Assembly: GCA_905178155.1 (NCBI GenBank)
Contig: CAJINV010000003.1
Location: forward strand, 5,029,700 to 5,093,699
From: Amoebophrya sp. A120
Lineage: Eukaryota; Protista; Dinoflagellata
Direction: 5' to 3'
Length of the DNA stretch: 64,000 nucleotides
The position numbers and the translations under genes were made by a program. The notes under the pieces were generated by a model. The model did not search any database and had not been told where the DNA came from. It worked only from the letters and a program-made list of their open reading frames with translations. Shown piece by piece: positions 15,588 through 59,894 of the stretch (its first letter is position 1; each line of letters begins with the position of its first letter).

Positions 15588-18500
15588 TTACGGCTCTTTG
15601 AGCTTGATGACCTTTTGTGCTCCCGCGGGATTGTTCATGTTCTCGACCACCTCCAGTACAATCACGATAGCGTCCTGACTGATTTCGCTCTGCCACTCCG
15701 CAAAGAAAAGGTCAATCCAAAATAGGCCGTCACTTGAAGACCCGTCAAACACCTTGATGCCTTCGCAAACTCGTCCGATAGACACTTCGTACCTGAAAAA
15801 TGGAGGCTCTTTAATGAATCACGATGCGAAAAAATCAATACAAAACGATGCGTAAAAACAATCAACCGCACGTCAGAAAGATCATTTGAAGATCGTCATG
15901 CATTCACACACACGTGCGGGGCGCTTTGTTGGCGTTGAAGATGTTGAGCACAGTCACATGCAGAAGAATTGATTAAAATCAACAGCAGTACTTGAATCGA
16001 CTGCCCTTGGGGGCGAAGAAGCGCACCGCGGAGACGCCTTCCTGGTAGATTCGGTTGTCCAGGCCCTCGGGGTAAAAGTCCATGCGCAAATCCGGTACGG
16101 AATTGAGTCGGAAGGACTCGGATCGGATTACGGGCACGTTGTTCGTGTTGCCGAGTTTCTTCGCGATGTTTTCGATGCGCCACTCCAGCTTGGTCGGTTG
16201 CATCGCTTGCAGGATGTTCGTGATCTTTTTGGTTGCATCCTCGTTCCAATGGTCCTGTTCGTCCACGAAGGCTTGATAGTCCCCCGCAAACGTCTTCATG
16301 TTCTTCGTAATCGTATTCTTCGCGCTGTCCAGAAGCAGCAGGCCCTCCTTGAGCCCTTGGTGCTCGTGTTGCAGCAAAGATATCTGTTGTAAGGGGTTCT
16401 ATAATTTTCACATTGGTGCACGCTCGAAAGGAAAATTTCCTCGGTTTCAATGTTCTGGGAACCTAAGAACCCGGGCTGTTAGAGAGCTGCGCTGTACTAA
16501 ATGTCAACTTCAAAAAGTCAACTACACCAGCTGGTGGTCAAAACTTTTTACATGTCTGCCGTTTTGATTTATGAAGTCCCCCAGCTCCTTCTGTAGTATG
16601 TTGAGCATCTTGGTGGACGCGAGATAGCCCTCCTCCGTTTTCTGCGAATCTAGCCGGAATTCGAGCTTCGCCTGCACCAGTGCCTTACCAAACTCCTGCT
16701 CGAACTCTTATCGTAAGGAAAAATCCCCCCTCCCCATATCGAAAAGGAAATTTGTGATGCTGGATTTCCGTACACAAATTCTCGCTGTCTTGCAGTAAGG
16801 CATCGCAGCCAGATCCTCAGGCTAGGCAGGGGTGTTTGGGTCTAGCTATTTCGCATTACAAACGGCTGCCCCCTAGGCCAAAAAGCATGCCAAATCGCTT
16901 CCATAATGGCCCGGAAGACGCTGCGTTTGTCTTCTTGCAAGACAGACGTGATTTGTGGTCTCAAATCAGCAACACAAATCTTCGGAGCGATACCGTTTCG
17001 ATATGGGGAGGGGGGATTTTTCCTTTTGATAACTCTGTTACGCGCTTCTGGTGCACCTCGACAAATTCGTCGAACTGCCCCTTGGTCACATCGTGCTTCG
17101 CGTTTACGACGCCGAGACCTGGAAGAGACAGAAATCCGGTGGTAAAACTAGCCGTCGCTTACGCTTTGATAAAAATTGGCCGCCCAACATTAAGATCAAA
17201 ACGGGCAAATGCTGATAGCAACAATAAACCACATTTGGCTATTATATACCGTTTGCGAGGGTCTCTACTTCTGAGGCCAGGCCTGCGCGCGCGTCTTCTA
17301 GCTCTAGTATGTCGGCCTTCTCCCCTTCTATTTTTCCGCAGAGGGATTTTATTTCCGACAACCGGAGCTCCAGAAGCTGTGTTGAAATTGAAACATGCAC
17401 AGTGATGACAATCAATGTACCAACGTCGGTTCTTCACGACAAAGCATGCAGACATTTTACGAAAAAGAAAGGAGAAGACACGCACCAGTTCACGTCTGAG
17501 TCAACGACCTACAAGAACCCCTTTTTACCTTATCCAGCTCCTCGTTGAAAATTTTTCTTCGGGCTTCTATATTGGTGATGTCTTGCCTGACTCTAGTGTC
17601 CAATCGTCGTATTGTCTGGTCCGTGCTGGCGGCGTCTGCGTCTATTCTGGTAAGGAGCTCATGGTGCATTTTGTCTCGCGCAGCATTGGCGGCCTCTAGC
17701 TCGCTTTCTAGTTTCGAGCATCGCGTCGCCCTGTTGTTTTTTTGCAATGGTCTTCTTCTACACTCAGGGTCTTCTCCGAGCGACTGGTCGAGGTGGACAC
17801 ACAAAATTTGATGAAAACGCTCCAGGCAAAGCCAAACGCAAAATGAATAATACAGCTTATCGACTGTTTCCTGGAACTTGGCCACGTCAACTTTCTCGGT
17901 CTTTAGTCGTGCGACGTCCCGCGAAGAATCGCTTACACTTTCCTGTGGTACGTTTGATTTTCGAGGAAATTCACTCAAGAGACTTAACGCATCAACTGAG
18001 ACTTTTTCACAAAAAGTAGAATGGAAAGAATTGACAGCGTCAGTGGGCTTTCATAATATGTACAACCGCCCATCCGCCCCGGGTAAATATACGTCATACC
18101 TTGACGGTGGCGAAGCCCTTCTTTATGCTTTCGACCCACTGGTTTCGCTGTGCTTCGTTTTCGTCGTTACCGTCCGCTATTTTTGTAACGGTGGCTGAAA
18201 CCTTGCTGAGCTGATTTGTGAGCTGTGCTACTTCCACTTGCAGGCCTCGCTCAACTTCCTCCAGCCGCTCCCCAGTTTCCGCGCTGCCTTTCTCCAGTTC
18301 CGTGATTTTTGTCTCTATGCTGCTTCGCCTGTTGTGTGGAGGTCACGAGAAATTTCATCAATTGCCAGTGCAAATGCACAACAACCAACACAAACGCAGG
18401 TCATTCAATGAATGAATCATGCATCCTCGCACCAAAAACGCAGTAGAGGCCGCTAACAAATAGGGAGCAGTACGTTTCTGCGAGCGATTTCTCGATTTCG

Positions 18501-19165
18501 GCCATGAAACGCTTAGTGTTCATTTCGATTGGCTGCAAGCTTGCGAGGAGTTCATCGGTTGTCCGCTTTGTCTCTTGTTTGAAATCTTCGAGCTTCTTCT
18601 CCATCAGATTCGCGTTTTTTCGAAGGTCTCGGTTCTCCAGCTCGAGTTGGTCTACGTGATCTTTTTTCATCACCCGCTTCTGTCGCTGTTGCTCCTGCTC
18701 CCGGGCTGCTATGCTTTTGTGCACCTGAGTGTCCATATTACCATGATGATCACGTTTCCAAATGATGTTTTCCATTTCTCCTGCAGCTAGGTGATGCATG
18801 TGCAGCAGCTTTCCACCTCCTCTTCCACTTCACAACATTGAGAAACACACAGGATATAAATACCCCACAAAAACTTTTACCTCTATTGTTGGATATGCCA
18901 CCGGCGTTTCGGCGAAAAATTGTTCGGTGACCGCATCGTCCGTGAGCGGAATTTTTCTCCCATTTTCCACTGCCACCAAAGAATAGTCTCCTCTTGGTAC
19001 GTCAGAAAAAGAAAGGACGTGCCCGAGCAGTGTGCCTAGGTTCCTCTCTTTCTGGAAACTCGGGAAGGTTATTGTTCCGCAAAGTCTCTTCTCCGAGTCC
19101 TCGCCATCGACCATGAAGGTTCGGAACCCCTTTCCGCCTTCCCTTTCGCCGCCCTGTTCCGCCAT
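15588..19165 (-). CDS. Multi-exon coiled-coil protein with a C-terminal MATH/TRAF-like beta domain
   Basis: About 10 exons join in frame, mostly through GT-AG introns (e.g. PTIE|VHKS, DK|LLEL, FK|YEVS), plus one non-canonical intron at 16709-17036. The C-terminus 'WRIENI..IRSESF..LRMDFYPEG..SAVRFFAPKG' resembles a MATH fold. Confidence 0.65.
16709..17036 (-). mobile_element. Introner/MITE-like non-canonical intron, 328 bp
   Basis: Imperfect inverted arms of ~100 bp (16709-16809 vs 16920-17031; tatcgtaaggaaaaatcccccctccccatatcgaaa / tttcgatatggggaggggggatttttccttttgata). Direct repeat AACTCT at 16703 and 17031. Excision gives ..QKRVTEFEQEF.. in frame. Confidence 0.9.
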
Positions 19166-19975
19166 TTTCTTTAGTTATAACGGTGCAAGTGCGTCTGTTT
19201 GGTTGCAGCAAGCTGCAACCTGCGGACGTGGTTTTCTGACGGAACAAATTAATCTCGACGGATGAATTGCGACTGGTGGGTGTAGCTCTGTGCCCCGCGC
19301 CGGCCTTCCCGGTCGTCCTACGAGTCGTCCAATTACAGCAACAGGGGCCCCTCCGCCTGTCAAGCTGCCCGCAGCTCGAATAGGGTGGTCGTACCTTGTT
19401 CCAAAGAACTTCTACCCTTGCTCTTTTCTACGGCGGCCAGGCCAACGCGCAAGGCCGATGCAGAGCCATCATGGGCAGAGCTTTCAGAGGGTCTTACAGC
19501 TACCGGCAAGCATCTTTCTATGCTCGCATCTAGTACATCTGGTGCCCCCACAGAGGGACCTATCTTTGTTCATGGGAAACAGACACAGTTCTTCCAGAAG
19601 TAGCTCTAAAAGCATGTGCGGTGGTGGAAGTAGCTCTCCGACGATAAGGAACTTGCTCATGCATTCAACAATGCACACGACGACCAAGCGCAAAAGCGCG
19701 CACGATTGCTCTAAACGAAAAGGCGAATCTCTCGTCCGATGCGCTATTCCATGTTCGATTTGGGCCTCAAATCACGCCCTCGTAGATAGAATCATACGAA
19801 ATCGAATTCCAGCTGCGACAAAAACATGGCTGACGCCCGTGCGCTCGTGGACGAGGCGAGAGTGTGAAGATGAAGAATCGTCTTCAAAATTGGCTGCGAA
19901 TTTCTTATTTGAAAGGATTCAATTAGTTATGTTGTCGTGCTGCACGCTAGTCAGCGGTGTATTCCATCGAGGCTC

Positions 19976-22052
19976 TTATTTATCGCACTTAATCGCTTTC
20001 TTGCGTTCCTCCAAAAGGTTCTGCAGCACGCGAAATGCACCCTCGCGATATTCGACGCAGTACGTTCCACTGTACCGATCAGGATGAAAATCAAGGGAAA
20101 CGCGTCGGTACGCGCGTCGCAGGCTCGCACACGTGTCCGATCGCAAGAACTTCTGCCAATGCGACCCGCTTGTCTCGACGGACTGTGAATTGTGGTCGGA
20201 TATTCCATTACAGAACGTTGTATCTTTGAAACAGATTGATGAAACTACTTCACCATGAATTTACGAAACTTCAACTTTCATCTCCGTAGACCACCAATAC
20301 AACAAGTACCTCTAGCACCCGGGTTCCGATGTGCCAGCGCAGGTAGTCCTCGAGATCTTTGAAGTCGCAGCTGTGCAACCAATCGCGCGTCCACTCTAGC
20401 ACTTTTCGGACAGGGTAGCTGTATTTCGTGAGCGGGTGTCGGTACCGCGCGGCCTCTTCCCGTTTCTCCCTGCGGCGCCGCCGCTTTGCCGCTGCTTCTT
20501 CTCGTTCTTTCAACATTTTTTCCTCGTTCTCCTGTGCCTGTAGTACCTGGTTCGCCGCGTCCTGGCTTGTCGTGCTCGACTCCTCGTTGTCAGTTCCCGA
20601 GAGCACCCTGCCATGATCTCCACTGAGCGACGTGTTGAAGGCAATCTTGATCGATTCATTCTCCTTTCCCAGGCTCCAGTCTTTATCGACGCCTGCAGCC
20701 GCAGCCATGTGCAAAATGCGCTGCCGCGCCTCGGCGTCCTGTCTCGCTTGAGTTCTTTTGCTGTCGGCTGCAGAAGTGGGTTCTTCTTCTTCCTCCTCCT
20801 CCTCGTCCTCGTTGGCAAGAGCGGACGCAGATGAAGATGTTGGCTCTGCCGTATTTTTTAATACAGACGCCGACGTTATCCCTTTGACATTCTCCGACGT
20901 CGCACCTTTATTTCCCGCTGTCTCTACTGCGTCCTGCTCCGTTTCATCTTCGTCTGCAGGACTTTCTGGTTGACCCAATTTCCACAGGTCCACCGCCGGG
21001 TCCGGGGCCGACCGCAGGAACTTGAGAATCTTTCGCGACACGATCGCAGGGGCCAGGTCGGTTGGGACAAGACTTCGCAGCAGTTGCACCAGCACCCGGT
21101 CGGGTGTATGGATAAAGCTTTCCAGTGAAAAAACGAATTGTTGTTCCGACGGTGCGTCAAGCTTGCTCTTGTGGGATGTAGAAGTTGTACTAGTCACTCC
21201 GGTTTTCTTCTGTGTCTCCTCATCCAGAAACCCGACCCCTGTCCACACCGCGTCACGCAGCGTCAAGACGCAGCGCCGCCGCACGCGCTGGACCTGGAGG
21301 AGCAATGCGACCGGCGGGGCAACGACATAATTCAAAGTGCTGTCATAATTCCCCGCCGTCATGCGGAGTGCGTCTTCCAGTACTACCCCGTCGAGCGCCA
21401 GAGGGGACCAGATCACGGCCTCAAACGCAAACAGCGCAGCGATCCCGCGCCGAAAGAACTTACGCGCCCGGCAGACCCGTTGAGCAAACCGCTCGTGCGA
21501 GGACGGCGTGCGAGGCACGTAGGACCCTGAAGACGCGGTCATCGCACCGAAGACAATTCGTGTGTAGAGTTCTAACGCCGTGAAAAACACGATGGCCACG
21601 CCGAACGTTTCTTCTTCCAGCCAGGAACGGGCACAGGTCCACACGGCGAGCAGAAACGCGTGCAGCGCCAGTCGCTTCGGGACGAAAAAGTAAACCAGCA
21701 GCAACGCGCGCACTGGCTTCACACTGTGCACGAAATCACCCTGCCCGAATTTGTGCAGAGCCCGCACAATGACGTAAAACTCGGCCGCCAACATCACCGC
21801 AAACATCAAACGCGCCAGAAACACGAGCGCGAGCGCGAAGTCGCTGGGGCTTTTAGCTAAAGTTTTGCTGCCCATACTTTTCTCTGTTCGTGGCCCAACC
21901 GCTGGGGCGTCGATGCGAAAGGGCGGGGTCGCGTTTTTCGGTCTGTCTCCGACCTCCTTTCCGTGGGGTGCGCTGGTTGGCTTTAAACTTGAACCGATCG
22001 CGCCCCGCTGACGAAGCGTCGGCGGACGGACGGAAACGGCTGGAACAGGCAT
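19976..22052 (-). CDS. Multi-pass membrane protein with a C-terminal DnaJ (J) domain; 2 exons
   Basis: ORF 20271-22088 has hydrophobic helices. A GT-AG intron (~20183-20309) joins it to an exon encoding 'LRRAYRRVSLDFHPDRY..AFRVLQ' (HPD motif), with a stop at 19976-19978. Confidence 0.75.
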
Positions 22053-22600: not shown

Positions 22601-22643
22601 ATCATTCATTGCGACACTTACTTCATTCATTGCGACACTGACT
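22601..22643. repeat. Short tandem duplication (2 x 21 bp, TCATTCATTGCGACACT core)
   Basis: atcattcattgcgacacttac / ttcattcattgcgacactgac. Confidence 0.7.
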
Positions 22644-22764: not shown

Positions 22765-25700
22765 TCACTCGCAGGTGGAAACATTGGTCTTCGATGGGGC
22801 GCGCGATTCCTTCTGCTTCGACCCGGAACGCGACTCGGTGATCAAATGCGGGATGTTGTGAAACTTGGCGATGCGGGCGACGATTTTCTCGTACGCCACC
22901 GGGTGTTTGTTCTTGATCAGGTCGTCGAACACCTCGTCCGTGAGTTTCTCCACGACGCAGTAGGTTTGCGCACGTATATAGGCCGTCCGCTTCGCGCCCT
23001 TTTGTACCAAGGCGATTTCCCCAAAGTAGTCCCCTTCCTGCTTCTGCGCCACCACGGTCAGCTTCCGAGTTTTCTTCTGCGCCAACGTGGAAAGCGCGCC
23101 GTCGTTACTCCGGGCGGAACTGCTCGTATCATCGCGGGCGTTGTCAACATCCCCGTCGGTATTAGCCGTTTGATCGGTGCCCGTGGATGCGGCCGGATCC
23201 ACCTTTCCCGCACCCTGTGCGGGGGCGTCTGGTTTCTTATTCGTGGACCAGGGCGCCCCCTTGAACGAGTGCTTCAGCAGTGTGGCCGTCGTACTATCGA
23301 CCAGTCGCTGGGGTCCGGACACCGGAACCACACTCGCGAGGTTATGCTTGTTCGGGCTCTTCCCGCTGGTGTCGGTACTAGTTGCCTTCGACGATGACTT
23401 TTGTTCCGTTTCTTTGCCCTTGTCCTCTTGAAGATGTTGCGGATCATCACTCACCCCCTTGGACGGCGTGCTGGCCGCTGGTGCGGCGGCCGCACCTGTG
23501 TTGATCAAAACGTCGCATAATCCCTTCAGAATGAAATACATCTCCCGTCCCTTCTGGCCTTCGCGAATGATAAAATCGCCGGGGGAAAAGACTTCCTCCT
23601 GAAAACTGTCGATAATCTCGCCCACCCCGTGCGGCTTCAGGTCGTAGAACAATGGCGCCTTTTCGATGAGCTGCGCGAAGAGGCAAATTTTCACTTCGAG
23701 CACCAAGGCACGACTGGAGGTGTGGTACAGCAACTTGCAGGCCTGCTCGTCGTGCTGGATTTCTAAGAACTGGTGGTACATCGTATAACCCGCTCAGGTG
23801 TTACAATCTCAAAGGTTACGATAGAATCTGGAATTTGTGTTGCAAGAAGTGCATGATCTACCCTACTCCCACAGGATTGCGCATGACAAGTTCTGGAGTC
23901 CCAATCCGCACTACAATCTGGCGAAATTTGTATTGCAAAAAGTGGAACGCTGTCCGAGTCTGTCATGTTGGTCATGCAAGACAAATCTCAGACTCTATTG
24001 CAACGTTTGAGATTGTAACACCTGAGCAGGTTATACATCGTGATGCGCCGCCGCAGGTTCTCCGGAAGCCGCAACACGCTCATAGCCGCGTTAATTGTCG
24101 TTTGCTGTGTAGTGTGTATATTCAAGTTCTTTCCTTGACTCCGGGTTGCTACGACACGATAGATGTTACTTATACGAAATCGTAAAGGACAGAAAGATAC
24201 TATGTACTTTAAGTTTTTGTGCTGTCCAAGAACATGTTCCCTTTTCAAAACTACTCCTCTTCTTAATACCTGTTCCAAAATTTTGCTTTTCAGAATGTTC
24301 ATCCGCTGTTTGATCAGGACAATTTCAGCGAAGATGACTGCCTGACACAGGGCTCCGACCGGCTTGAGCATCACCTGGGTGAGCACCAAGTGTGTGTCCT
24401 GTCGTGCCGTCATGACCGCGGGTGGCGACGCGGAGAAGAGCAGGACGGCGTCGCGGAGCGCCAGCAGGTAATACTTTAGCACGTGCGTTTCCTCGGTGTC
24501 TAATTCGTACGCAAAACGCCCGTCCTGCTCGTGCAGTGCCAGGAACCAGATCACGGCAAAAATATGCACGGCGAAAATGTTCACGAGCGCGAGCGTGAGA
24601 GCGCTGAGCAGCCCGTTTTTCCAAGGGGACAAAACGCGTCCGTCGGGCGTACACTGCTTGTCGTGGCGGTACCGTTGCACGCTTTCGTACCGGAGAAAGC
24701 GAAACAATCCCAAGAACCGGGTCCAGCTCGCTGCTGGACCGAGTAAGCCTATCCACATGAAGGCACCCAGGACGGAGGCAGCATTCATGCGCAACTCGCG
24801 CTGCCCCCACACCAGGCGGTGGATGTCCGCGAGCTCCACGTATTCCTTCCCCTGCTGGTACAGGATGACGGAGGTGCGAAACGGCAAGATCAAGTGGATG
24901 AAAACGAACAGAAGTTCGAACACAAACAAGTCCACGAAGAGCAACGCCTCCATCATCCGAACCTCCGCAGCTTTGTCCTCACTTACCGGGTGCGGTCCAC
25001 CGTTTAGAAGCCAGCGGAGCAACGGAGGTGACTCTCGCCGGGCTGCGTCGTGGTTGGTCACCTCAAGGCCGCGTGCTGGCGCCGTAACATCAAGTTCAGC
25101 TCTGGAGGAAGAACTGTGCTCGCGGAAATGCTCTTCTGCGGCCAGCGGAGAGGTGAGTACGGTACGTGATGATACCGAGTGGTCGACGGTATGCCTGCTC
25201 CCTTCCGTTCTGGTGGCGAAGGCAGCTGCAGCCGCTTTGCTTTCTTCAATATCTGGTCCATGAAAGTTTGGATCCTCTGGAAGGAGTTGTACACGTTCCG
25301 GCGGGGATCGTGCTCCTACTTCTCGCCGGTCTTGAAGATCCGCCAAGCTCGTCGGTATCCCGTCCTTCTCGTGCCACGATGCTGCCGTTGGTTTTGGCAA
25401 CACATAATCCTCTTGCAGTTGCCTGTTTTGCGCTGCTGCTTCGTAGGAGTCGTACAGTAGCGGGCAGTACATGAGAAAAAACGTCGTAAAAAAGCAGTTC
25501 CAGACGAACAAGACGGTGGAAAAACGGTGCAGCCGCTCCACCAGCAAATCGGATGCCCGGAAGTAAAAGTTGAGGTGCGCTGGCACCTTGCCGACCAGGG
25601 TGTTCGTCGAGTTGTTCTGTCCGAACACCGAGGCGTCGTCCGTATCCCGAATCTCCAACTGGTCAAACGAGAACCGCGAAAACTCGACCACGGAACCGAG

Positions 25701-27108
25701 ATTGATGATACTTTTTCGTCCCTTGGAAAGCGACGCACGTCGCGACTTGCGACGGGCAACCATGCTAGTCGAGCTCCCGGCGTCCGCGGCGCTCCGCATG
25801 GAAATACTCGGCCGGGACGTTGCACGCGCCCACGCTTCGTCGAAACTTTGCCTCGCCCCTTGCGAAGCTCGCGTGGCGCGCTCCGCGGGAAACTGTTTTT
25901 TAAAAAGTCATATATTTTTCGGCATAAATATTTTCTCACAAATTTCTATTTATGGCAGCTGCTGTGCAGGTCTTAATATTCTTCCACGACCCTCCCATGA
26001 CAGCTCGGACCGCACTTCATGCGTGAGGTACTTAGTGACACCAGCGAGAGTTGTAAGTAATACCCTGATGTCTCCTGCGCTCGCACTGCGATAAAGTACA
26101 TTCCGCTCCGGCGCGTTCTCCTCCTCCCGCGGGGGAGATGGCGGCATGCTGCCCTTCGACGAGATCCGCGACTCCGTGCTAGACGACGAGAACGAGGATC
26201 CACCATCATCGACAGGCCGAATGTTGGAGACCGTGATTCCCGCAGCCACGACCTCAGGCTCTGCGTTCCCCCCGCCGGAGCCCGCTGCCTGCTCCCTTGA
26301 CGTGGGCAGCGGTCCGGCAGGTGCTGTCTCGTTCGCAGCCACGGTAGCAGGTGCGATCGGTTTTTTGTTCTTCGCGTTGATAGACGTATTCTTTCGGTGC
26401 TGTGCGCTGCCGTCCGAAGAAATTTCTCCGAAAGAGGACGCACTGCTGCGGGAGGAAGAGCGCGTCTCCACCGTGATTGGTAGACACACCTTTGCGGTGC
26501 CAGCATTCGCCACGATGCCCCCACTCTTCCCGTTTGCGGTTGGCTGAGGGGTCGCCTCATTCTCGGATGGTCGATCGGCGTACGTCGCGTCAACTAACTC
26601 ATCATCGGCCTTTATGCAACACAAACGTGAAGATCATGTGGAGCAGCGATAATTTTCAGTCCCTGCGCTGCATCTCTGAGTGAAGCGCGTTTTTGGCTGC
26701 AGCACTCAAAAACGCACTTCTAAAATAAATTGCTGCGCAATCGTACTACAAAATGAAAAGTCTCTACTAGAAGGTTACGCACACAACTTCACCACGGAAT
26801 GATTTTTCTTGCCTAGACTCAATCTGCAATTTCTCCTCGTCTTCCAGTGTGGTTTCCAATCTGGCCTCCGCGTCCGCCATCTGATCTGGCGTGTGACCGC
26901 TGCTTTTTTCGCCTTCCTGTGCTCCAACGGCGGGTTTAAAAGATACTTGGACGATTGTGTTAAACGAGACACGACTTCCGCGGCGCCCTATTGCAGCGGC
27001 AGGCTTGATCAACGAAAGGAGGGATGGCGACGGCTCTGGAGCTGGATCGGCTGCGATTACCTGATCTTGTTTACAGGTGTTGCGGAGGGCTGTAAAAAAA
27101 CTCCGCAT
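22765..27108 (-). CDS. Cyclic-nucleotide-binding-domain cation channel (CNG/HCN/KCNH superfamily); multi-exon, 5' end uncertain
   Basis: TM helices with an S4-like 'RFLGLFRFLRY' and S5 'AVHIFAVIWF'. C-linker 'AAMSVLRLPENLRRRITMYHQF'. CNBD 'FSPGDFIIREGQKGREMYFILKG..GDYFGEIAL..RTAYIRA'. Exons join by GT-AG introns and one inverted-repeat intron. Confidence 0.85.
23785..24041 (-). mobile_element. Introner/MITE-like non-canonical intron, 257 bp
   Basis: Inverted arms of ~60 bp (gtataacccgctcaggtgttacaatctcaaa.. / ..tttgagattgtaacacctgagcaggttatac). Direct repeat TACATCGT at 23777 and 24034. Excision restores RRITMYHQF. Confidence 0.92.
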
Positions 27109-28855: not shown

Positions 28856-28931
28856 TTTGTTTCGAGAATACGGTGATGGAAATAGTGCTTGTGATAATTG
28901 AAACAAGAAACAAGAGGTGAAAACACGTAAG

Positions 28932-40200: not shown

Positions 40201-43200
40201 GTGGACGCGACGGAGGGCCGCGGGTCCGCATTCGCGGAGCAGAACCTGGCTGGCCTCTACTATGTGGCCACCGTCCTGTTCAAGAAGCGCGAAATGGAGG
40301 AGGCAATCCTGTTTGCCAGACGCGTGATATTGACGTGCCAAACCAAGGCGGCCGCGTCCGATGCGCTTGCCGTGCTGAAGGAATCGGAATACCGACTGGG
40401 TGCGTGCTACGTGGCCTCGAAGGCGCACCTGATTCTCGAAGACCTGCAGGAGTCGCAGTGGATGATCAAGCGCGGCTTGGAGATGCGCGAGAAGGCCGAG
40501 CAGGTGCACTTCGTGTTTTTTCTCGGCGTCATCAAGTCCCGCCTGCACGAGTACGGCATGGCGAAGGAGCTGCTGGTGGAGGCGTTGCAGTTGTCGAACC
40601 TGTTCAAGAAAAACGCGTGGTCCGCCTCGCGTTCTTCATCTGCCACGGCGACCGACCGCCAGTCGCGGCAGTGGAAGTTGTGTCTCACCATGGACGGTAC
40701 TACCGCCTCGCGACTGGTGGACGGCCTCGCGTCCCAGACCGGCTCCTCCGAGAAGGAGCCCACGCCGCAGGAGATGCGCAACGTGGAGGCCGCCGCGGCG
40801 GCGGCCGCGTCGCGCGACAGTAAGATCTGCGTCGACATCCGGTTTGCTTTAGCGCAGCTGTACTTGTACCAAAGTCTGTACGAGCTCGCGCGACAAGAGG
40901 TGGAAATTGGACTCTGCGAGAACCCGATGCACGTCGGCTTGTTGTCCACGAAGGCGCTGCTCTACGTGCTTCAGGATGACGAGGAGAGCATCGCCGAGAA
41001 CTGCCTGGTGTCAATCGATCTGGTCTCGCGGCTTTGCCAAGACAAGCAGAACATCGGCTGGCTACCGCTGCTCTACTGCCGCCTAGGCTACCTCTATTTG
41101 CGCGCAGAGAATTATGAGAACGCCCTGCGGGCACTCTCTAAGTGTACTCGCTGCGATCTCCATACGATTCCGCACGTCACGAAGAGTGTCTACGGCAGCG
41201 CCCACGTTCTCGTTGCATTGATCTACAAGACACAAGGGGATATCACAGCGGCCCGAAAACACGTGGCTGAGGCGAGAAGGTTATTTTCCCCATTTTTTGC
41301 GGACAAGCATTTATGATGTCGAGGTGCAGGTGATCTTCATTCGCAGAGAGTTTCTGCTTCATCGCGGATGCATTTTTTATGTTTTTCATAATTGCCGTGA
41401 CCGCGATTGGCTGCTCTACATCTACCTCAACAAAATTTTCCGCAGGTATCATAAAATTTTCGATGGCTTCTTGACCGCAAGAAAAACCGACGGTCGCGAA
41501 CTGAGCACGTACCTACACGAGCTTTGCCTCACACCCGGCCACATTTCGCAACTGCTGTCGCTTCTGGAGGATTGCGCAAGCTCCGATCCGACGCCAGCCA
41601 CGTCCACTTTCGAGCAACAAGGTACCGCTTGCTTGGACCTGCTGGCAGCATAGCTGCTCTTTACTTACTTCTTCAATGAGATCTTCACGCTCCTTCATAT
41701 CACCGCTCGTAGCAGAAAGATGAGCGTTTCTCGGAAATAAGGGAGATGTTGTTCATCTCATTTTCTTGACAGGTGCCGGGCAGTTTTCGCTGCCTCCATC
41801 GAAACCAACGTCGCGAAGCGGTACACCCTCTCGGCTTCAGCCCACCGCGTACCCGGAGCCAGCCCCGCAAGTCATGATGCCACCGACCGCCGCACCGCAG
41901 CAGGCCGGACCCGCCCCGGGCACGAATCCTCTGTTTTTCACTTCGACAACGCGCGGTGCCGCGGTGCGAGATGCCAGTCTGACGCCGAATTCCGTGACCC
42001 CACGGGCGATGTTCGCGGCGCTCAAGCCTCCGTCGCTCGAGTTTCCGACCGCAAAGTTGTTCGGCGCGGCCGGGGGTGGGACTACGGCACTGCAGAGCGG
42101 CGGCGAGCCGCTGCTGCCGACGGTGAGCCTCTTTTCGCGCAGCCGGAGTCAGTCTCGCACGGGTACGCCCGCCCGAGGGCGGAGTCTGACCCCGGGCGTC
42201 GGATCCGAAGCACACAGCCGCAGCAACTCGCAGTCGCGCCTGCAGCCCGCCCTGCTGCAGCAGCAGGACCGCGTCTTGGCGCCCATTGTGCAGCAGGTCG
42301 GCCAGCCCGCGGGAGACTTGATTCCGAGTGTAATGCCGACGGTCATTCAGCCTCCAAGCGCGCCGTTCGATCCGCCGCCACGACTCGGTTTGCCTTCGTC
42401 TGCATCTTCACGGTCGCACACCCCCTCACGCGGGTCCTCGTCTGCGGGACCCAGTAGTGCGGCGCACAGCAAAGAGACCTACGGCCCCCGCCCCGGCGCA
42501 GCAGCTCCGCCGTCCCGTCCCGGCCTCTCCTCGAAGATCGCCCCGCCGTCTCTCGCCGGCGGAGTGCAACCGTCCTCCTCGCTCGTTCCATCGCCGCCCG
42601 CGGACCACGAGGAGGCCGATACGTTTGGAAAGGCCGTCGCGGCCGCCCTCGCCCACGAAGACGCTTCTCTAGCGGCCGACAGTGAGTCCTCAAGAAGGCA
42701 CTCGCCGCCCGACCGCAAGCCAATGGAGGGCAGCTTGCGACTCGCGGAGTACAGTAGTGACCACGATAGAGCAGCAGACCAGTCCGTCATCCCCTCCGAG
42801 TACAACTCGCGCGGCCCCTCGCCGGTGGAACACCCGAAGCACCACGCGCGCCGCGTGTGGTCTCAGCAGAAAAACGCACCCAACCGACAGTTGTCCAGTG
42901 GCCTGAACAGCCCACCGCCGAATGTGTCCGTCCCCTCTCTCGGCGGAGGCGGGGGAGGTAGTAGCAGTTCTTCCTCTACTTCCACGTCGCATTTCCAGCA
43001 ACCCGGTGACGGGGGGTCTACCGCCGTCCGGTCGCGGCAGGAACACAACTCTGCCCCCACGGAACAGCAGCAGGAAATAAACAACCTCGATGACACCAAC
43101 TTGCAGGAACATCAAAACTACAACGCCCAGCAGCAGCAGCCGGCCGGGCCCCCGGACCGCGCGCCGCAGGAGGGTCGAAACTCGTTGCCCCCAAAAAGAC

Positions 43201-44424
43201 GGCCCCAGGTGCAACTGGCCATTCAGAAGATGGTGAACAACGACGACCTGAAGTACGGCTACCGCCTTGGCAGCGGCGGCTTCGGAACCGTGTACCACGG
43301 AGTCTACAAGGGGGAGGAGGTGGCCATAAAAAAGATCAACATCGACGAGTTTGGGAACATATGCAATGCAAAAGCATCGTGCTAGTATGTACTGCAGTAC
43401 AAAGTAGCCCAGCATCACAAATTGAATCAGCTTGCCTTGAGAAAATATGTAACGCATAAATGCAATAATTCCTACGAGTACGATACTTTTGCACAGGATG
43501 GAACATGTCGGAAACGCAGATGCTGGAAATGGAGAAAGAGATCGAGGCGTTGTCGCATCTCCGCCACCCGCGGCTCGTCAAGTTCATCGGCGCTTGCCTC
43601 GATTACCCGCATTTGTCCATCATCACCGAGTTCATGCCCGGGGGGTCGTTGCACGCGCTCCTGCACATCAACAAAGTTAAACTCCCACCGCACACGCAAC
43701 TTAGCCTCTCGAGGCAGTTCGTCGAGGGGGTACGGTTTCTGCACACGCAGCAGCCCAGTCCCATCGTGCACCGGGATTTGAAGTCCTTGAACTTGGTGCT
43801 CGACCGGTTGCTCAACTGCAAGATTTGCGACTTCGGCCTCACGCGGACGATGGACAAAACACATCTGTCATTAAAGGACGGGGGTAACGGAGGAAGCCCA
43901 AGGTAACAAGTTGTGCTGATACTACCTACAAGTGAGCTACGCGTACTTCTGGCCGCAGTCATTCGCAGTTTTTTTGCGCACTGGAGTTGATGTCATAGCG
44001 GTCACTGAAGTATTTAGTCTCTCTCGGTCATTGAAATTGTCCTGGCAGAGATCGTTTCGCTTTGCGCATGCGATAGGTGACGAGGTGGAAATCAATGCGA
44101 AAGTATGGACATCCACATGATATTCTTTTCCCCAGGTACATGGCACCGGAGTGCTACGAGAGTCAAGGCAAGCTGACAGAGAAGGTGGACATCTGGGCAG
44201 TCGGGTGTTTGCTGAACGAAATCTATGGCGGCCGGCTCCCCTTCGATGAGTGCACCGCTATCCAGCAAATTGTGAAGAAGCTTCTGGTTGACCATCAAGG
44301 TCCCTACATCCCTCCGCACATCCCCGCGCCGATGCGAACCCTGATTCAGCAGTGTCTCTGTTTCGACCTGCGGTCCCGTCTTTCTGCGGTCGAGATTTTC
44401 GATCGTCTGCAGCAAATAAAGTGA
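34252..44424 (+). CDS. Giant multi-exon TPR-repeat protein fused to a C-terminal TKL-family protein kinase
   Basis: TPR-rich exons are linked in frame by GT-AG introns (EA|IKRL, KAM|CQR, QRT|YEF, AE|ED, ARR|YHK, QQ|GAG). Kinase motifs are GSGGFG, VAIK, HRDLKSLN, DFG, GSPR|YMAPE and DIWAVG. The first exon (MGQ..) is tentative. Confidence 0.8.
43361..43506 (+). mobile_element. Decayed introner-like non-canonical intron, 146 bp, inside the kinase domain
   Basis: Direct repeat GGAACAT at 43354 and 43500. Inverted repeat tgcaaaagcatcgtgct / agtacgatacttttgca. Excision gives EFGNMSETQ in frame. Confidence 0.75.
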
Positions 44425-45687
44425 AGCGCAAGTAGGTGGACAACTCTGGGTCGACGTACGGAGAAGGTTTTTTCAATCGAAACCCTGTAGAATTGAGGAT
44501 AGTAATTACGAAGCGTTCAATATGAAAACCAAAATCAATGTTATGTAACTCCTAAATGTAACTCCGCGATGCAAATCGCGTTTTCATAGTGCCAGTGCGT
44601 ACGAGGCGTCGGTCACGGGAGAACATCCTCTCATGGACCGGTTTGTCTCGTACTCGTACTGCCGTGTACGTTGTGGCCATTCGTAGATGTGTGATTTTTA
44701 CTCGAAGTTAATATATCTTGTGCACATCACTTCAGCTTTCAATCGAGTTGATCTTCGCGCTGTCACTCGATTTGACGCAAATTGTTAGTCCGGCGTCGTG
44801 GATTTTTTCTGAATGCTCAGCTGCCGTTACGTACGTAGACTGCCAGCGATTACTTTGGTCACGCGGCCGCAAGCAGGAGACGTAGTTGCGACGCGGCCCC
44901 CTTGCCTGCGGAAAACTTTTCTTTGAAAGAGCTTTGGAGTGAAAAGTACTTCAGTTCTTGCCTTTTTCGGGAACCAACGTCGAAAGTACCGGATTCTTTT
45001 GAAGGACAGCCTCTACCGAAGCGAAGAAGACCTTTATTTCCGTAATTTTCAATGAGGGAAATCCGGGCGCCCGTAAGAGTACGTATCTGAAAGTCGTAAA
45101 GCGATATGCAACTACAGTAAGGTTCGCGGTGAGGAGACAAAGCAAACTGCAAAAACTGTTCTCCGCGCTTTACTACTTGCCTACTTGGCATGATGTTGAG
45201 ACAGTGGCAGTGTCAGTCTCAGATTGGACTGCACTTGTCCAGTGCAGATCTACAGTAGCCCACGACAACGAACCACGAGTGGAAGATCAATCTCGAGCAT
45301 TTTTTGTACAGATCCGCGCTGTCCGTTTTTCGTGTGCGATCCCAGACACGACTCTACACGTGGTTTACAACGATCTTCATTGTCAGTTGCTCCCGACTCT
45401 ACCCTTTGAACACCGCGGCCACTATGCGCAGGAGTGATTTGCAAGGTTTGTGCGATGATTTGAGGGAATTGAACTCCAAGTGTTGCACCATTTCTGTGGG
45501 TTACACCATTGTATCACCAGGTCGTTGGTTTTTTTTCCTTGTTTTTTTTTTCCTTGCAGCTACGATTACAAGTAGCAGTAGCAAATAACATCTGCATACG
45601 AAGTGAAAGTTGAAGTTGAAGGTTAGTGCTATTCACATATTTCTGGGCGGTGAACAAGCAGGTGGTGGAAATCGGCAGTCGAAAAAA

Positions 45688-53938: not shown

Positions 53939-54784
53939 AAGTCACATTGATAATTTCAGATTTTTCGACCGTTCATTCTTCTTCTTGCATCGTAAGTACG
54001 AAACGTGCAACAGCGAATTTTTTTTTGGAATACACAATTTCAAAGATTTGTTTCGACGAACTCACTACAGGTACTGACTGGAACTTTTTTTTCAGCGGTT
54101 TCGTGCGAGCCCCGAAGCGCCTGATACTGGAAGCCGCAGAGCAGCGACCTTGAGGAGCTACGAGTTTTTCTTTTTTCAGTCGCCACCCGGAGGATGAGAA
54201 TGAGTACACATACCTGAAGCAAAGACCACACACAGTCGCAATGTAGAAGTTTGAGAAAGCGAAGTAGTACGCCGAGTTTGTAGTGCGAAAAAATATACAG
54301 ATTGCAATGGACGAAAATGAACATAAAAAAAGCAGCGTCTCACTGAGTAGTCTGGGGGTATTAATTGCGACAGCTGGAAGCTTCCTTTCCAAGCTCGTCG
54401 CATCTCGCTTGGCAGCAAAAGCTCAGTTTGGCGGTGTCTCGATCCGGGCAAGATCTTCCGGAATTTACGTAAATTGCTCGGGTCGTATCAATGACTTTCA
54501 TATCTTGCGCGAATTTCGGACGATCAGTGTCGTTCCATCATAAAAACCATTATCATCAATGTACGCACGTAGCATGCGCGCTATGTAAAAATAAAATGCT
54601 TCGAAGAAACTTCAGTCAATAAGTCGAAAGCGAAAGCCTTGCTTGAATGTCTTCTTCCTGCTGCGTCCTGGCGGACGGGCTTGTTTCGATGCCATGGTGT
54701 TCTGTGAGTCAGCGAAGGGACTTTTTTCCCGAAATCATGTCAAGTGAAAACTCCAACCCGACGCTGCTCTAAAACTCGCACTGC

Positions 54785-56050
54785 GTGGCGGAGCAGCTGT
54801 CTTTTGATGTTGCCGGGGGCCCTCAGTTTTGCTTCGGGACGAATTTCGGCGGCCTGGGCCGTGCCTGGCTTGTCCCCATATACGGCCGGGCGAACTGCGC
54901 CGACAGTGGGGAGCGCCTCGGCGATCGCTTGCGCAGCGCGCTCGTTTGGTTTCGCGCAAATCGCGAGGGCGAGCATTGCCATGCCCTGCTTGCAGTTCTT
55001 GACGGTCCCGACAGAAGTGACACGCCGGCGGCTCCGGTTCGTAGCACTGCGGCGATCTCCACAGAGTCGCCCGGCCCGGAGCTCCTGGGCGTTGCCATCT
55101 TCGTGGACGGCGTGCGCCTCGCCCTCTCGACTCGCACGAGACGGGTCTATAGTTGTCTAGAGTTTTACGAAACTGCGGCCATTTTACTAGCCCTGACCAG
55201 GTTCAGCATCCTGCGGCGGGGGGAGACGGTCCCGGAACTTGTGGACAATTGGCCCGCACGGTGCGCGCGCCAGAACAGCGCCAGCCCCGCAGCGCCTTGC
55301 TGCGCCCTGGCTGGCAAGATTCGGGGCCGCAGGCCCCGCAGGCGACGAGCCCGGTGGCCGCGGGCATCTTGCAAAACTTCCCGCCCAGGATGAGACGTCT
55401 CGCCAGTTTTCCTGGCGCTGCTGCCCGGCTGCCCGCGGCCCCATTTGCAAGCATTCCGCGGGCCTTTTCGGACGGGAGGCGCGCCCCCGGGGCCTGTTGC
55501 GCCGGCCGGCGCGCGGCTTTGCACGGTCGGACGGGCCGCGGGCGGCCCCTTTGCGGGAGACGCGGGGCGGGCCCAAGGGCATGAGCCGGACCGCGATCGA
55601 CCTGGAACCGCTCCGCCTACCGCAGTCTCTTCGGGAGCTACTCAAGTAGGCAGACGAAATTGGGTCCCTGCCTACCGGGGGCCTTTGCGGGGTTTTTAAA
55701 CATCGCCCCCGGAGGTGGGGGGGGGGTATTCGGTCCCACAAAGCTGCTGGCGCTCCTACAGACTGGCTTTCCAAATTTGCTTCAGCTCCTGTTTCTAGTT
55801 TCCAAACGTATCGGCTGGAATGAGGATGATGCGGAGACGGGCCGGCGCGGCGCCAGTCGCGCGAGCGTGGCCAACCCCCGAAGAGGTTTGGCCCAGTTGG
55901 CTCCTCGGGAACGGAAGGAGAAGGACTGGGATAAGGGCGGCAGGCTGCGCGCCCGCACCTTCACCGGCGGCAGGCACCGCGCCGGCAGCGGCGGAAATGC
56001 CCCAAGGGTAAGCCTTGCCACCCGGGGAAAGGGAGGCGCGGTATGAAATC
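54785..56050 (+). mobile_element. Decayed DIRS-like (tyrosine-recombinase) retrotransposon fragment: end of RT, RNase H, and a YR-like remnant
   Basis: 'QFCFGTNFGGLGRAWLVPIY' (RT thumb-like). 'LEFYETAAILLALTRF..RGETV..LVDN..AR' (DIRS-type RNase H). 'CLPGAFAGFL..PG..VF..IGW..GRRGASR..LAQL' (YR C-terminus-like). Frames are broken. Confidence 0.5.
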
Positions 56051-57115
56051 GAGGCGGTCGGGTCCATGGGATTAGAGCACTGGAGGCCGAAACTATATCA
56101 GCCGAGCGACGATACGGGAAAAGGCAGGGAAATTGCGAGGGCCGGCCTTCAGTGCGGGGCCGGAGCGCCAGCGAGCCGATGTGCAGACGGGCGGCTGCCA
56201 AATTTGCCAACGACGCACGTGCCTCGCTCGAACGTAATGGCACCAGTGGCCGCATCGGGCGCCTGCCACCAAGCGGGAAGCGGCTTTCCTACCGGAAGGC
56301 GGGCGCCTGCGGTATTTCTGCCGAAGGGGCTGCGAACAGGTAGCGCGCAAATTGTTCGGACAAAGTGGCCTCGCTTTTGGCTACGCGTTGCGCTGCGACT
56401 TACCACCGCGGCGGTGCCCCCTTATCCGGATCCTGCTCGCTGTCGCTTTGCGCGGCCTACAGAGCACGCGCATGCACTTCGCCCGTTGGGGACGGGCGCG
56501 GGTCGTGCTTTGATCTCGTCGGGCTGGCGCCTGTTCGAGCACGCTGCAGCGCTCGCGCACAGCGCCACTACGTAGCTCGCGTTCTAGAAGTCGGAGCGCT
56601 TGCCACCCGCGCGCGGTCACCGACCATGTGCAAACTGTGTCGTAGTCCGCTTGCGTGAGCATTTTACTTATCGACCGATCGCAGAAATTAAGTGCAAACA
56701 CAGCTCGCACTTCGTGGAGCATTTTTTTTTTTGATGTCGTAGTGGACAGGGCTGTTCTTACATCGACCACCAGCCGTTCGCTTTCTGTTTTGAGAGCCGA
56801 AGCACGCGCGTGAATTCGCGATGCGATCCATTTGCTCCGGTTCGTGAAATTAGAAGTACATGAGGCTTTATGCCACAGCAGCAAGCGCAAAGGCATAGAG
56901 TAAGATCACAGACCCTGTGGTTAACCACCCTGAAACTTTTTGCGCCGAGTGTACAGAGGCGAGCACAACATGTAGCAAGAAAATAGCACACACACTACGT
57001 ACAAGGAGGAATTTATTCTTCGACCTAAGATTGTTGCGGAGTAAGTGCGATCATCTTCAGGTGAGCGCATGTTGTATCGTCATTTCTAATGCCAGGAGTC
57101 GTGCCTGTGGCAAAA

Positions 57116-59894
57116 ATGAGAATGCGGGCTCTCGTTCTTGCGTTTGTGTCCGTGGCGCTTCGCTTGCGCTGTTGCCTTGGATTTTCGTTGGACGAAAACG
57201 ACATGCAGTTGCGCGAGGGTGAAGATGTGAACGCGGCCGTGGAGCGCGTGATGCAAAAAATGATGGTGGACCACCAGAAAACGAAACACAAAAAGCTTCA
57301 CGAAAGGCGCCAAAAGATGCAGGAGGAGGATCGGTTTAAGCCGATCGCGAGGGCCGCGCCGCCAAAAGACGTGGTGGAAACGACACATCAAGGCGAACAA
57401 GACGATGACGAGCTGGACGACGACGTGCAGCTGGACGAAGCGGGCACGAAAAATGCTGATGCCGCCGCGAGGGAGGACGAAGATGCCTCATTGTATACCC
57501 GGGCGACAGCGTACGAGGAGAGTGGTGAGTACTTTCGCAACTACGAGCTCGCGGAGACGCACAAGATTATGGTAACGGATAAGTACCGGACGGACCAGTA
57601 CCTGAAAGCGCTGCAGCGCGCCGGCGTGAAAGGCAAAATTGTGGTGGATTTCGGCTGCGGCAGCGGGGTGCTGAGTATCCTGGCAGCCCGACTCGGAGCG
57701 GACCACACCTACTGCGTCGAGCGCTCCAGGGTTCGCGTGCAAGCAAAGCAGGTGATCGCGAAAAACGGGTACTTCCCATGGTTACTACACGCAGGCTTAT
57801 TTTGTACGAGCGACTAGCTTGCTTGTCGTGACAGTCCTGACGTTTTTCTACTCGCGAAAACTTCTACTGTGCCAAGCGCAGTAGAGGTATTCAGTGTGTG
57901 AATGCATGTCTGTTCTGTATTAGTTCCTATCATGATCACGATCTATTGCCCAGATTCGCGGACCGCATCACGGTGGTGGCCAGCGTAAACGAGATCGAGC
58001 CGAAGTCTGCGGACGTGCTGGTGTCGGAGTGGATGGGGCATGGTCTACTGACGGATGTGGTGATCGGGGATTTTTTCGATGCCCGCGACCGGGTGCTCAA
58101 GGAGGACACCGGGGTTCTGATCCCGTCCAAGGGCCGCATCTACGCGCAGCCGGTGAGCGATCCGGCCTGGTGGCGCGATAACGTGGCGTGGGGCACCGAC
58201 AACGACTACGGGATCGACTTTTCACCGCTCTCCCTCTACACGCGGTCGAACACCACCACCACGCCCATCCGGTTTGCCCATTTCGGCGTCTTCCAAAACC
58301 AGAAGTTCTACGGCGGGAAAAAGGCAGCGGTACAACTAGAGTGTTACAGAATGTTACCCCATCTGGTGCGCAGAATTCGAATTTTTGATATGTGTATTGT
58401 GACTTGTTTTGTAGTTCACCTTCATTGGTGCAAAAATCGGGAGCATGTCGTGGTTCAGCCGATGAACTTGTGCCAAGTTGTCCAAGCCTTTTCTGGGCTG
58501 CTTCCGCGCGTTGGATCCAAGCGATTCCGCGCAGCATTTTTCTATTGTGGTATGTACCATAAGTAGTACACGTCTCGTGGGAAAGATGCAGCAAATGCAT
58601 CCGAGTTGTACTTCGACGCCACCCTTCTGTGCGCTGTTTGCAATGCTGGGTCTCAAACGGAAACAGATCTGCACGATCGACTTTGAAGCAGACAGCTACG
58701 ACGCAGATTGGGAATGTGGTCGGCGTATCAAATGCAAAAATGTCTGGGTCTGGAAGAATGCAAGATTTGTCATGCGCATTTCTCATGACCCACGATGCCT
58801 GTAATGCATGACCTAGCATCGCAGACTTTTAGAGGGCTTTCCGATGCACCTTCCGCATGAGAAATGCCCTGCCCGTGTAGCACAAACTGTGCCCCTCTTG
58901 CTGGTCATGCAATACAAATTTTTTTAGAGTCCAAAAACAGTTGGCCACTGGATTGTCCTTCATAGGCCGCCGAGAGATTCACTCGCCTCGCTCGATTTTT
59001 TTTGCTTCATCCTTCTCTTTTTGCTTTCCTTTTCCAAAAAACTATGCATGTAGGGATCGCACTTGACAAGATGGGCATCCGTCGCGGCGGGATCTCCCCG
59101 GGTTTGGTTTAGGTTTCAGGGTTTAGGGTTCCCCATTAGGGGGCCCCATTTTAGAGTCCAAAAACAGCATGACAAGTTGCAATCTTTCAGACCCAGACAT
59201 TTTTACATTTGATACGGCGCACCCGGCGGGAGCACAAGTTCCCGGAGCCGGTACCGGACGATTGGCACGGTTTTTTGATCACGTGGGATGTCACGCTCTA
59301 CTCGGACGTGACATTGGACACCTCCAACCCGACGCATTACACGCACTGGGGGCACTTGTTCTGGCCGCGACCACTGGACACGGACATTGGCAATGGGAAA
59401 CTTGAGGACAAGCTTGAGCTGTCGGCATCGTTCAAATATGAAAACGGAACAGAACTCATGGTTTTGATACAACGCTTTTTTTCATTTCCGCGATCTACTT
59501 TATTCCACAGAAAGGACGCCTGTGCTCACCCGCCCCGGGTACTTACACGTACACCTGACACGACAACAAATTCTTTGCATAAAAGAGAGAAGTAGATTTT
59601 AAAAAAAATTCCACTGATGCTAGATGCAATCAAAATCATCGGGACCTATCTTGTCACCTCTATGACCAGCGGGCGAACCTCTATCACCACGACCTGCAAT
59701 TCCGGTACTACTACCAGAACCACGGGGAGGAGGTGGTGCTGCGGGAGCCAGAATTTTCCGCGGACACGGTAGCGACCGAGGACGCTTTCCAGAACAAACG
59801 GCTCTACACGGCCATGCTAGCTGCGAAGGCAAAAAAGCGAACAGAAGCCAAGCAAGACGCCATAGAAGGGAAAAAGAACAGAGTTGACCTGTAG
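57116..59894 (+). CDS. Protein arginine N-methyltransferase (PRMT family) with an N-terminal signal-peptide-like segment; multi-exon
   Basis: 'YFRNY..HKIMVTDKYRT', motif I 'VVDFGCGSGVLS', 'VERS', 'VSEWMG', 'THW'. The last exon ends at TAG 59892-59894, and its junction is uncertain. Confidence 0.85.
58726..59219 (+). mobile_element. Introner/MITE-like non-canonical intron, 494 bp, with a nested insertion
   Basis: TIR of ~50 bp (gtatcaaatgcaaaaatgtctgggtctggaagaatgcaa / ttgcaatctttcagacccagacatttttacatttgatac). Direct repeat CGGCG at 58721 and 59215. Excision gives ECGRRTRREHKF in frame. Confidence 0.92.

Follow-up and report, generated by a model that had tools for sequence, protein, structure and literature searches.

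Introner elements were described among the non-canonical introns of Amoebophrya strain A120 by Farhat et al. in 2021, with about 30,000 such introners reported in that strain (PMC7789003). These elements have a TAT-starting terminal inverted repeat (TIR) with seven looser bases and at least three A's, a 5-bp direct repeat (Fig. S19 legend), non-GT-AG ends, and no transposase, and are found in multiple copies beside canonical introns; the same source gives repeats of 3–5 nt and argues against general mobilisation by a transposase (PMC7789003). Gozashti et al. 2025 reported A120 TIR-DNA families of about 149, 209, 250–260, 305, and 320 nt, mostly with non-canonical annotated ends, and automated duplication lengths of 2–6 (PMC12130899). 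The MITE introners of Micromonas/Aureococcus and Polarella are likewise non-autonomous TIR elements that duplicate their target and turn into introns; they carry or co-opt GT/GC and AG (PMC11282704). Euglenid nonconventional and diplonemid noncanonical introns have pairable ends without GT-AG and occur alongside U2 introns (PMC12501133, PMC12621601), with duplication-like repeats in the euglenids (PMC12501133). The A120 intron class is thus already published genome-wide, and the locus described here is a clean example.

Within the window analysed (the whole stretch of 64,000 nucleotides, which its sequence assigns to Amoebophrya), four elements, E1–E4, were identified that are almost certainly introners of the A120 type, the class to which a sequence-only reading had likened them.

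Four inverted-repeat elements and their families

All four elements are of the TAT...ATA inverted-repeat type and each interrupts a coding exon (Table 1), as the sequence-only reading had proposed; its direct repeats of 5–8 bp are also present, but with a uniform length of 5 bp, the extra letters representing overlap with the terminal TAT/ATA. The three longest inverted repeats listed for the window are the arms of E2, E4, and E1, and a terminus-profile scan of the window returned E1–E4 and nothing further. In line with the A120 elements, all four have terminal inverted repeats of 8–20 nt or more, a direct repeat at the exon/intron boundary (5 bp in 4/4), and relatives elsewhere in the genome, and their size classes correspond to those of Gozashti et al. 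The pattern TAT + 7 nt + AAA is present at both ends of E1 and E4 and at the left end of E3, the right end of which is ATG instead of ATA (reading CAT); E2 starts with TAT but, unlike the published definition, has no A-run at positions 11–13. By sequence, they could not be assigned to a numbered published family, as the four terminus motifs had no match in those PMC12130899 supplement files that were searched.

Table 1. Positions in the window of the elements, their target duplications and their host genes.
Feature	Position	Strand	Description
E1 host gene, RNA-covered part	15988..19604	-	8 canonical introns
E1	16709..17031	.	323-nt TIR element, TAT...ATA, inside minus-strand gene
E1 5-bp target duplication	left 16704..16708, right 17032-17036	+ (left)	ACTCT
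E2 host gene	22765..25907	-	cyclic-nucleotide-binding domain, PF00027 E 6.8e-14
E2	23784..24035	.	252-nt TIR element, inside minus-strand gene
E2 5-bp target duplication	left 23779..23783, right 24036-24040	+ (left)	CATCG
E3 host gene, protein kinase	41724..45106	+	PF07714 E 3.3e-27; X4 contig
E3	43360..43500	.	141-nt TIR element, weak hairpin
E3 5-bp target duplication	left 43355..43359, right 43501-43505	+ (left)	GAACA
E4 host gene, SAM methyltransferase	57089..59891	+	PF06325 E 4.9e-10
E4	58726..59214	.	489-nt TIR element
E4 5-bp target duplication	left 58721..58725, right 59215-59219	+ (left)	CGGCG
Nested insert in E4	58941..59167	.	227 nt

No Pfam family was found in the two exons tested of the E1 host gene, and RNA cover of the E2 host gene extends over 22330–24642. 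The E4 host gene, which we take to be arginine-methyltransferase-like, matches the public gene model P0001 (named Amoebophrya sp. A120) at 97–99.6% identity in four exon blocks. E4 itself is a family copy of about 262 nt made longer by a nested insert, which contains telomere-like TTTAGGG units, has a 19-nt direct repeat at its borders (58922–58940 and 59149–59167), and is covered by 0/127 metagenome loci; loose ends at 58935/58940 in contigs of the DNA-like run X1 represent E4 copies without it.

The E4 terminus was matched exactly in 127 metagenome assembly loci, which carry no RNA support and for which strands are model calls; relatives of E1, E2, E3, and E4 were present in 16, 4, 22, and 127 of these, respectively, including two near-full-length relatives of E2 (81–83% identity). 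The arms are thus multi-copy, and the earlier proposal of a non-autonomous DNA-transposon family holds for the TIRs and the copy number, though not for a single family, which sequence comparison rejected; the elements belong to four multi-copy families with a common terminus type. The internal motif that E2 and E4 had been noted to share is real but short (24 nt; equalled in 0/200 shuffles).

An exact 5-bp duplication flanks 92/113 distinct E4-family copies, with one mismatch in another 13. Across the 127 loci and the window, 166/280 TAT...ATA arm pairs had a 5-bp duplication, as compared to 0/21 in shuffled loci. None of the duplication positions demands a particular base. Only A at position 5 is overrepresented, with 40 against 25.5 for the confident set (p = 0.002 for one cell out of 36) and 49 against 37.3 when all copies are counted. 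While PMC7789003 argues against general transposase mobilisation, the copies analysed here have a duplication of fixed length at unselective sites, which favours a single integrase or transposase. No such enzyme was seen; none of the seven copies >380 nt has an open frame >150 aa, the terminus has no match in viral and prokaryote contig collections, and a literature search on the transposon superfamily gave nothing useful. Ginger, Transib, and IS3EU were the named superfamilies considered, on what we presume to be their end and duplication rules.

Removal from transcripts and presence in DNA

RNA-like contigs omit exactly E1, E2, and E3 together with one 5-bp duplication, in agreement with the precise removal that the sequence-only reading had proposed. 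The joint across E1 (16702 to 17031) was seen in runs X3, X4, and X5 and that across E2 (23776 to 24034) in X4 only, and an X4 contig links 43353 to 43500 across E3 with zero letters in between; the contigs skipping E1 and E2 also skip adjoining GT-AG introns. Removal of E4 has the public gene model P0001 as its sole support. The P0001 junction fits with 494 nt taken out, lengths of 503 and 508 did not fit, and no E4 joint was present among the 15 joints listed of 85. This evidence consists of contigs assembled from the cDNA of two samples, both belonging to a single study, and their RNA status is an automated guess; X4 behaves as RNA, since its depth is zero in five bins without annotated exons (45702–46935 and 54957–56807). 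The raw-read RNA runs X11 and X12 contributed 2 and 0 reads, respectively, and the environmental run X9 contributed none.

Run X1, in contrast to X4, covers 30/30 bins, and DNA-like contigs retain the elements. One X1 contig (42000–43496) extends 136 nt inside E3, and X1 contigs pass from exon to element at single-copy depth (about 45); under a 31-letter rule, X1 bridges only the left junction of E3, the overlap at the other junctions being 21–29 nt. A total of 7567 X1 contigs align to 42000–60500, heaped on E3 and E4. The choice between RNA and DNA that had been left to further work therefore now falls against DNA, and removal very probably takes place at the RNA level.

Splice letters, cut register, orientation and folding

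The removed lengths (element plus one duplication) are 328, 257, 146, and 494 nt for E1–E4, none a multiple of three, and removal restores the frame as predicted earlier. Of 155 elements, only two could be read through if retained, and the other 153 would break the frame. A first frame-restoration control was weak (open frames in 116/126 at +5, 114 at +2 and +8, and 92–101 with out-of-frame removals); a locus-wide control was clearer (median 0.64 vs. 0.51–0.53), with +5 the best in 33/53 loci. The coding likelihood over imperfect duplications did not fix the cut register. The 23 used for this analysis (27 found, minus one nested and three too near an end) include 14 that are synonymous, which is above the fixed-register prediction and raises the possibility of multiple registers.

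GTA...CAG ends were found in all 12 further introns with RNA support that were examined, which bears out the earlier description of neighbouring introns as canonical. It had also been claimed that the elements have no frame-preserving GT-AG register; this holds for the exact register (0/4), but each of the four elements has GT-AG pairs within 30 nt that would keep the frame, and the RNA contigs leave these pairs unused at E1–E3. E3 has an AT-AC register, and a 5′ GT register is present in E1, E2, and E4. A hidden 5′ GT as a requirement was rejected among 151 elements, 62 of which have a 5′ GT (67 expected); a 3′ AG is present in 73 (73 expected) and neither in 48. The GT-AG register was found in 3 (5.5 expected) and the G[TCA]-AG register in 13 (14.8 expected), so that GT, AG, and GT-AG registers are at chance level and the elements differ from MITE-type spliceosomal introners. 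U12 introns have AT-AC or GT-AG ends with a ATATCCTT-type donor. E3 does not fit this type: its AT-AC register continues ATATGCAA, and minor snRNAs are reported absent (PMC7789003). The code of Euglena introns is N3CDG ... CH'GN5-6|R (PMC12501133); 0/4 termini here have CAG at +4 to +6, and the lineage is a different one. The NT-heavy splice classes of the published Table S4 may derive from aligner preference and are not used as support.

Elements of the E4 family are found in both orientations, with 42:26 among 68 confident calls; strand calls were 97% correct in cross-validation, and for E4 the coding model had the strand right and the frame wrong. Neighbouring copies of the same family had the same orientation in six cases and opposite orientation in five. 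Chance-level GT/AG and the use of both orientations set these copies apart from the MITE introners.

Folding exceeded shuffles for E1 (z = −9.2), E2 (−11.3), and E4 (−5.9), with E3 (−0.11) at shuffle level. Over 201 elements, the terminal three pairs and positions 11–13 are complementary in 96–99%, and positions 4, 5, 7, and 10 in 49–70%, in a scan biased toward TAT ends. No selection on an RNA hairpin was detected by G-U/A-C balance or sense-strand folding; on the transcribed strand of 96 elements, G-U exceeded A-C in 29 and A-C exceeded G-U in 43 (p = 0.12), and the sense strand folded better in 44/93. Conservation of the 5′ end did not significantly exceed that of the 3′ end (49 vs. 34, p = 0.12). 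A pooled excess of A-C over G-U (86 vs. 56, p = 0.015) was set aside, as per element it is only p = 0.12. A hairpin is expected of any TIR element. A hairpin-guided step is unproven, because no hairpin selection was seen and E3 folds like shuffles; of the precise, structure-guided removal suggested earlier, it is the precision that was confirmed, at the E1–E3 joints.

Routes of removal and their meaning

Given removal from RNA, the spliceosome is the somewhat likelier catalyst, and we lean slightly toward a reading by analogy in which an altered spliceosome is anchored on the symmetric terminus. A trans-acting transposase or integrase would have placed the short non-coding copies in coding exons, and all four would be excised from pre-mRNA by a spliceosome that measures from the terminus and not from GT and AG. 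The recognised terminus would consist of TAT, C/G, five looser positions, and an A-run at 11–15, identical from either strand; E2 is removed although it has no A-run. More speculatively, the cut may fall one base ahead of TAT, with TA mimicking positions +2/+3 of a canonical GTA donor, and the T-run of the far end may serve as a pyrimidine tract. The spliceosomal step draws on analogy and this 2-nt resemblance; it is supported by the GTA donors of the canonical introns, and against it counts that, in known spliceosomes, the terminal G's take part in catalysis. Also in its favour, 83/89 spliceosomal proteins are reported as present with U1 undetected (PMC7789003), whereas a strain whose introns are canonical does have U1 (PMC12005148). 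A possible but less probable route is non-spliceosomal, as is suspected for euglenid nonconventional introns: an endonuclease would dock either where the terminal stem begins or on the terminus motif and cut with an offset of 5 nt in total, after which a ligase would join the exons. The indifference to junction letters and orientation, the paired terminal positions, the strong folds of E1, E2, and E4, and the paired ends without GT-AG of euglenid and diplonemid introns (PMC12501133, PMC12621601) are consistent with it; however, selection for RNA pairing was not seen and E3 folds at chance.

It is improbable that the elements are cut out of the DNA of transcribed nuclei at a particular life stage and so never enter transcripts, in the manner of the internal eliminated sequences of ciliates and their pointer repeats. 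The geometry of element plus one repeat and the strand symmetry would suit a DNA reaction, and the ciliate elements are similar in that their ends start with TA and are flanked by a direct repeat. Nevertheless, X1 contigs run from exon into element, although these are contigs with rare variants dropped and of undefined stage, RNA-like runs contain element sequence with foreign flanks, as loose ends, and we know of no germline/soma split in the group of Amoebophrya. Least probable, and very unlikely, is that the joints are reverse-transcriptase template switches over a hairpin between direct repeats, with the mRNA keeping the element and ribosomes hopping across it. Direct repeats with RNA structure are a known signature of false junctions (PMC4176328), the RNA evidence here is wholly cDNA, and any 5-nt repeat holds one full in-frame codon. 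However, the main contig through every one of these genes is the joined form, seen for E1 in three runs, E3 is skipped despite its weak hairpin, and the number of frame-breaking elements would demand hopping at thousands of sites.

The fixed 5-bp duplication without target preference, chance-level GT/AG, both orientations, and the lack of detectable hairpin selection narrow the mechanism and rule out the usual route in which GT or AG is co-opted. We found no prior report of the orientation and imperfect-duplication tests in PMC7789003, the text of PMC12130899, or a library search, and figures and supplements may hold them. If a machine blind to junction letters is confirmed, be it a rewired spliceosome or a new pathway, it would explain how a transposon fills exons at no cost. 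Tentatively, a second, non-spliceosomal nuclear splicing system may clear mRNA of transposon copies in the tens of thousands. It would take its measure from the strand-symmetric terminus, in either orientation and without junction letters, possibly with more than one register inside the 5-bp duplication, and a copy of these transposons landing in an exon would have done no harm from the start.

Four introners in coding exons and RNA-like joints across three

All four transposon-like introns (introners, E1–E4) that a sequence-only reading had placed in coding exons were confirmed there, and their exact ends were set (see table); the hosts are unrelated, as that reading held, and encode a kinase, a cyclic-nucleotide-binding protein, a SAM methyltransferase, and a product without a Pfam match (two exons tested). 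Each element presented a direct repeat on both sides, although the length of 5–8 bp first proposed did not hold; the duplication is uniformly 5 bp, and the surplus letters are element termini. Excision of an element with one repeat copy regained an open frame in all four, and, also as proposed, none of their repeat registers presented GT-AG. A terminus-profile scan of the 64-kb window identified no fifth element. Zero introners were present in two neighbouring 2OG-Fe(II) oxygenase frames, one of which carries a UBA domain, or in long TPR-rich frames (10626–14162 and 35428–41316).

Position, ends, and removal unit of each introner in the window
Element	Position	Ends	Removal unit with one duplication copy (nt)
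E1	16709–17031	TAT...ATA	328
E2	23784–24035	TAT...ATA	257
E3	43360–43500	TAT start, ATG in place of ATA at end	146
E4	58726–59214	TAT...ATA	494

Junction mapping with assembled contigs, which drew on seven of 13 listed runs, found E1, E2, and E3 cleanly removed in RNA-like runs with no GT-AG substitute; frame-keeping GT-AG pairs are present within 30 nt of each of E1–E4, and those near E1–E3 were unused. The run X4 behaves as RNA, leaving out canonical introns and dropping to zero depth over 45702–46935 and 54957–56807; a single X4 contig links 43353 directly to 43500 across E3, with zero letters in between. The 12 joints listed on 15700–24700 comprised ten canonical joints plus E1 and E2; the E1 joint was found in X3, X4, and X5 (two samples, one study) and the E2 joint in X4 only. 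Removal of E4 rests on a gene model rather than a read (its joint is absent from the 15 of 85 joints listed): the gene is matched at 97–99.6% by a public protein recorded under Amoebophrya sp. A120, which spans the junction only with 494 nt removed.

The DNA-like run X1 covered 30 of 30 bins, and its contigs pass from exon into element at a depth of about 45; 7567 X1 contigs stacked on E3 and E4, and under a 31-letter bridging rule the E3 left junction is the only one bridged by X1. Nested in E4 is a 227-nt insert (58941–59167) with telomere-like TTTAGGG units, its limits marked by a 19-nt direct repeat; it was found in 0 of 127 family loci and may itself be repeated, because summed X1 depth there is ~420–460, versus 45. 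An identical stretch of 1744 bases occurs at 54462–56205 and 62257–64000, the second copy directly after a lone N at 62256; because an X1 contig spans 54527–58748 with the depth of a single copy, the repeat probably reflects overlapping assembly across a gap. At 53349–54253, X4 and X1 differ from the window by allele-like changes and small indels, possibly reflecting a two-copy or polymorphic gene. Degenerate GC-rich tandem arrays occupy 1–1600 (units ~11–55 nt) and 30887–31737 (units 15 and 31 nt), the latter at a minus-to-plus switch of gene orientation and with its unit found again, inverted, near 55310.

Families and further copies

A search for further copies found relatives of all four elements in metagenome loci. 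The exact E4 terminus occurs in at least 127 loci (among the 80 entries listed, all with the prefix JACKZZ01), which also contained relatives of E1 (16 loci), E2 (4), and E3 (22). The single family once proposed did not hold: each element belongs to a different one, and cross-links are limited to short E2–E4 and E1–E3 matches. From 136 E4-terminus matches, the second end was located for 120, giving 113 distinct copies, mostly 251–266 nt, with an exact 5-bp duplication in 92, one mismatch in 13, and worse in 8; no copy encodes a long open frame. A general scan yielded 280 TAT...ATA arm pairs, with a 5-bp duplication in 166, 4-bp in 3, and 6-bp in 0 (shuffled control, 0 of 21 arm pairs). Across the 127 loci, 162 kb contained 201 elements, a density owed in part to selection, versus 4 in the 64-kb window. 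One locus (L001:83–1645) presented five introners of several families within 1.6 kb, with exons of ~40 and ~70 nt inside the first two pairs.

Host strand was called with a coding model that had been fitted to reading frames of the window (cross-validated accuracy 87% overall, 97% at a margin of at least 4) and could score 155 of 167 elements, 151 of them from the metagenome loci; splicing of the copies at these loci is inferred. Frames came out longer when 5 nt was removed with the element than when 4 or 6 nt was (p = 2e-6 and 4e-5), and 5 nt was the best length in 33 of 53 loci; retention would permit read-through for only 2 of 155 elements. Among the 151 locus elements, a GT-AG register was present in 3 (5.5 expected), 5′ GT in 62 (67 expected), and 3′ AG in 73 (73 expected), with both absent in 48. 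Target sites showed little preference, with a weak excess of A at position 5. Elements occur in both orientations: confident calls for the E4 family split 42:26, and smaller families split 6:6, 5:6, and 3:4; adjacent copies of one family shared orientation in six cases and were opposite in five, and at L079 two opposite copies interrupt an apparent single protein.

Mechanism of removal and relation to known introners

The elements are real and precisely removed, yet belong to a known class: repeat-bearing non-canonical introns, mentioned in the sequence-only reading as reported in Amoebophrya, are described for A120 in Farhat et al. 2021 (PMC7789003), with ends TAT + 7 nt + AAA, direct repeats of 3–5 nt, 1,954 families, 29,850 copies, and the removal mechanism left open. 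Every defining feature tested was found here, save the A-run in E2, and A120 TIR families listed by Gozashti et al. 2025 (PMC12130899) have equal sizes. Unlike introners that co-opt GT/AG, as presented in a review (PMC11282704), the E1–E4 type does not do so.

Insertion would call for a transposase or integrase that works in trans and staggers its cut by 5 bp; neither enzyme was found in the sequences examined. Removal would be anchored on a terminus that reads identically from either strand. Removal very probably occurs at the RNA level; DNA excision is unlikely, and a reverse-transcription artefact combined with ribosome hopping still more so. We favour, somewhat above even confidence, an altered spliceosome as the remover: its parts are reported as largely intact with U1 undetected (PMC7789003), and U1 is present in a strain with canonical introns, according to PMC12005148. 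All 12 RNA-supported canonical introns examined (15793–51407) are GTA...CAG without a conserved +5 G, as would fit a U1 that is divergent or missing, and TAT would mimic GTA from position +2. A nuclease-ligase distinct from the spliceosome comes a close second, as a tentative possibility.

Structure-guided removal, proposed from the inverted arms, found no support in a low-power test. E3 folds no better than its shuffles, unlike E1, E2, and E4, which far outdo theirs, and E3 is exactly removed despite this; sense and antisense strands fold equally, and the transcribed strand showed no preference for G-U pairs over A-C. Arm pairing is almost full at positions 1–3 and 11–13 and loose at 4, 5, 7, and 10. 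The hairpin is not evidence for a structure-guided splice, because transposition requires inverted arms anyway.

Mismatches between the 5-bp copies were synonymous in 14 of 23 scorable imperfect duplications (L008–L126), where 30–48% would be expected with one copy free under a fixed cut (p = 0.002–0.15, depending on the model), hinting that both copies may be read, i.e., that the cut varies. Imperfect duplications are natural markers with which to map the splice register, and they offer a cheap new handle on the removal mechanism.
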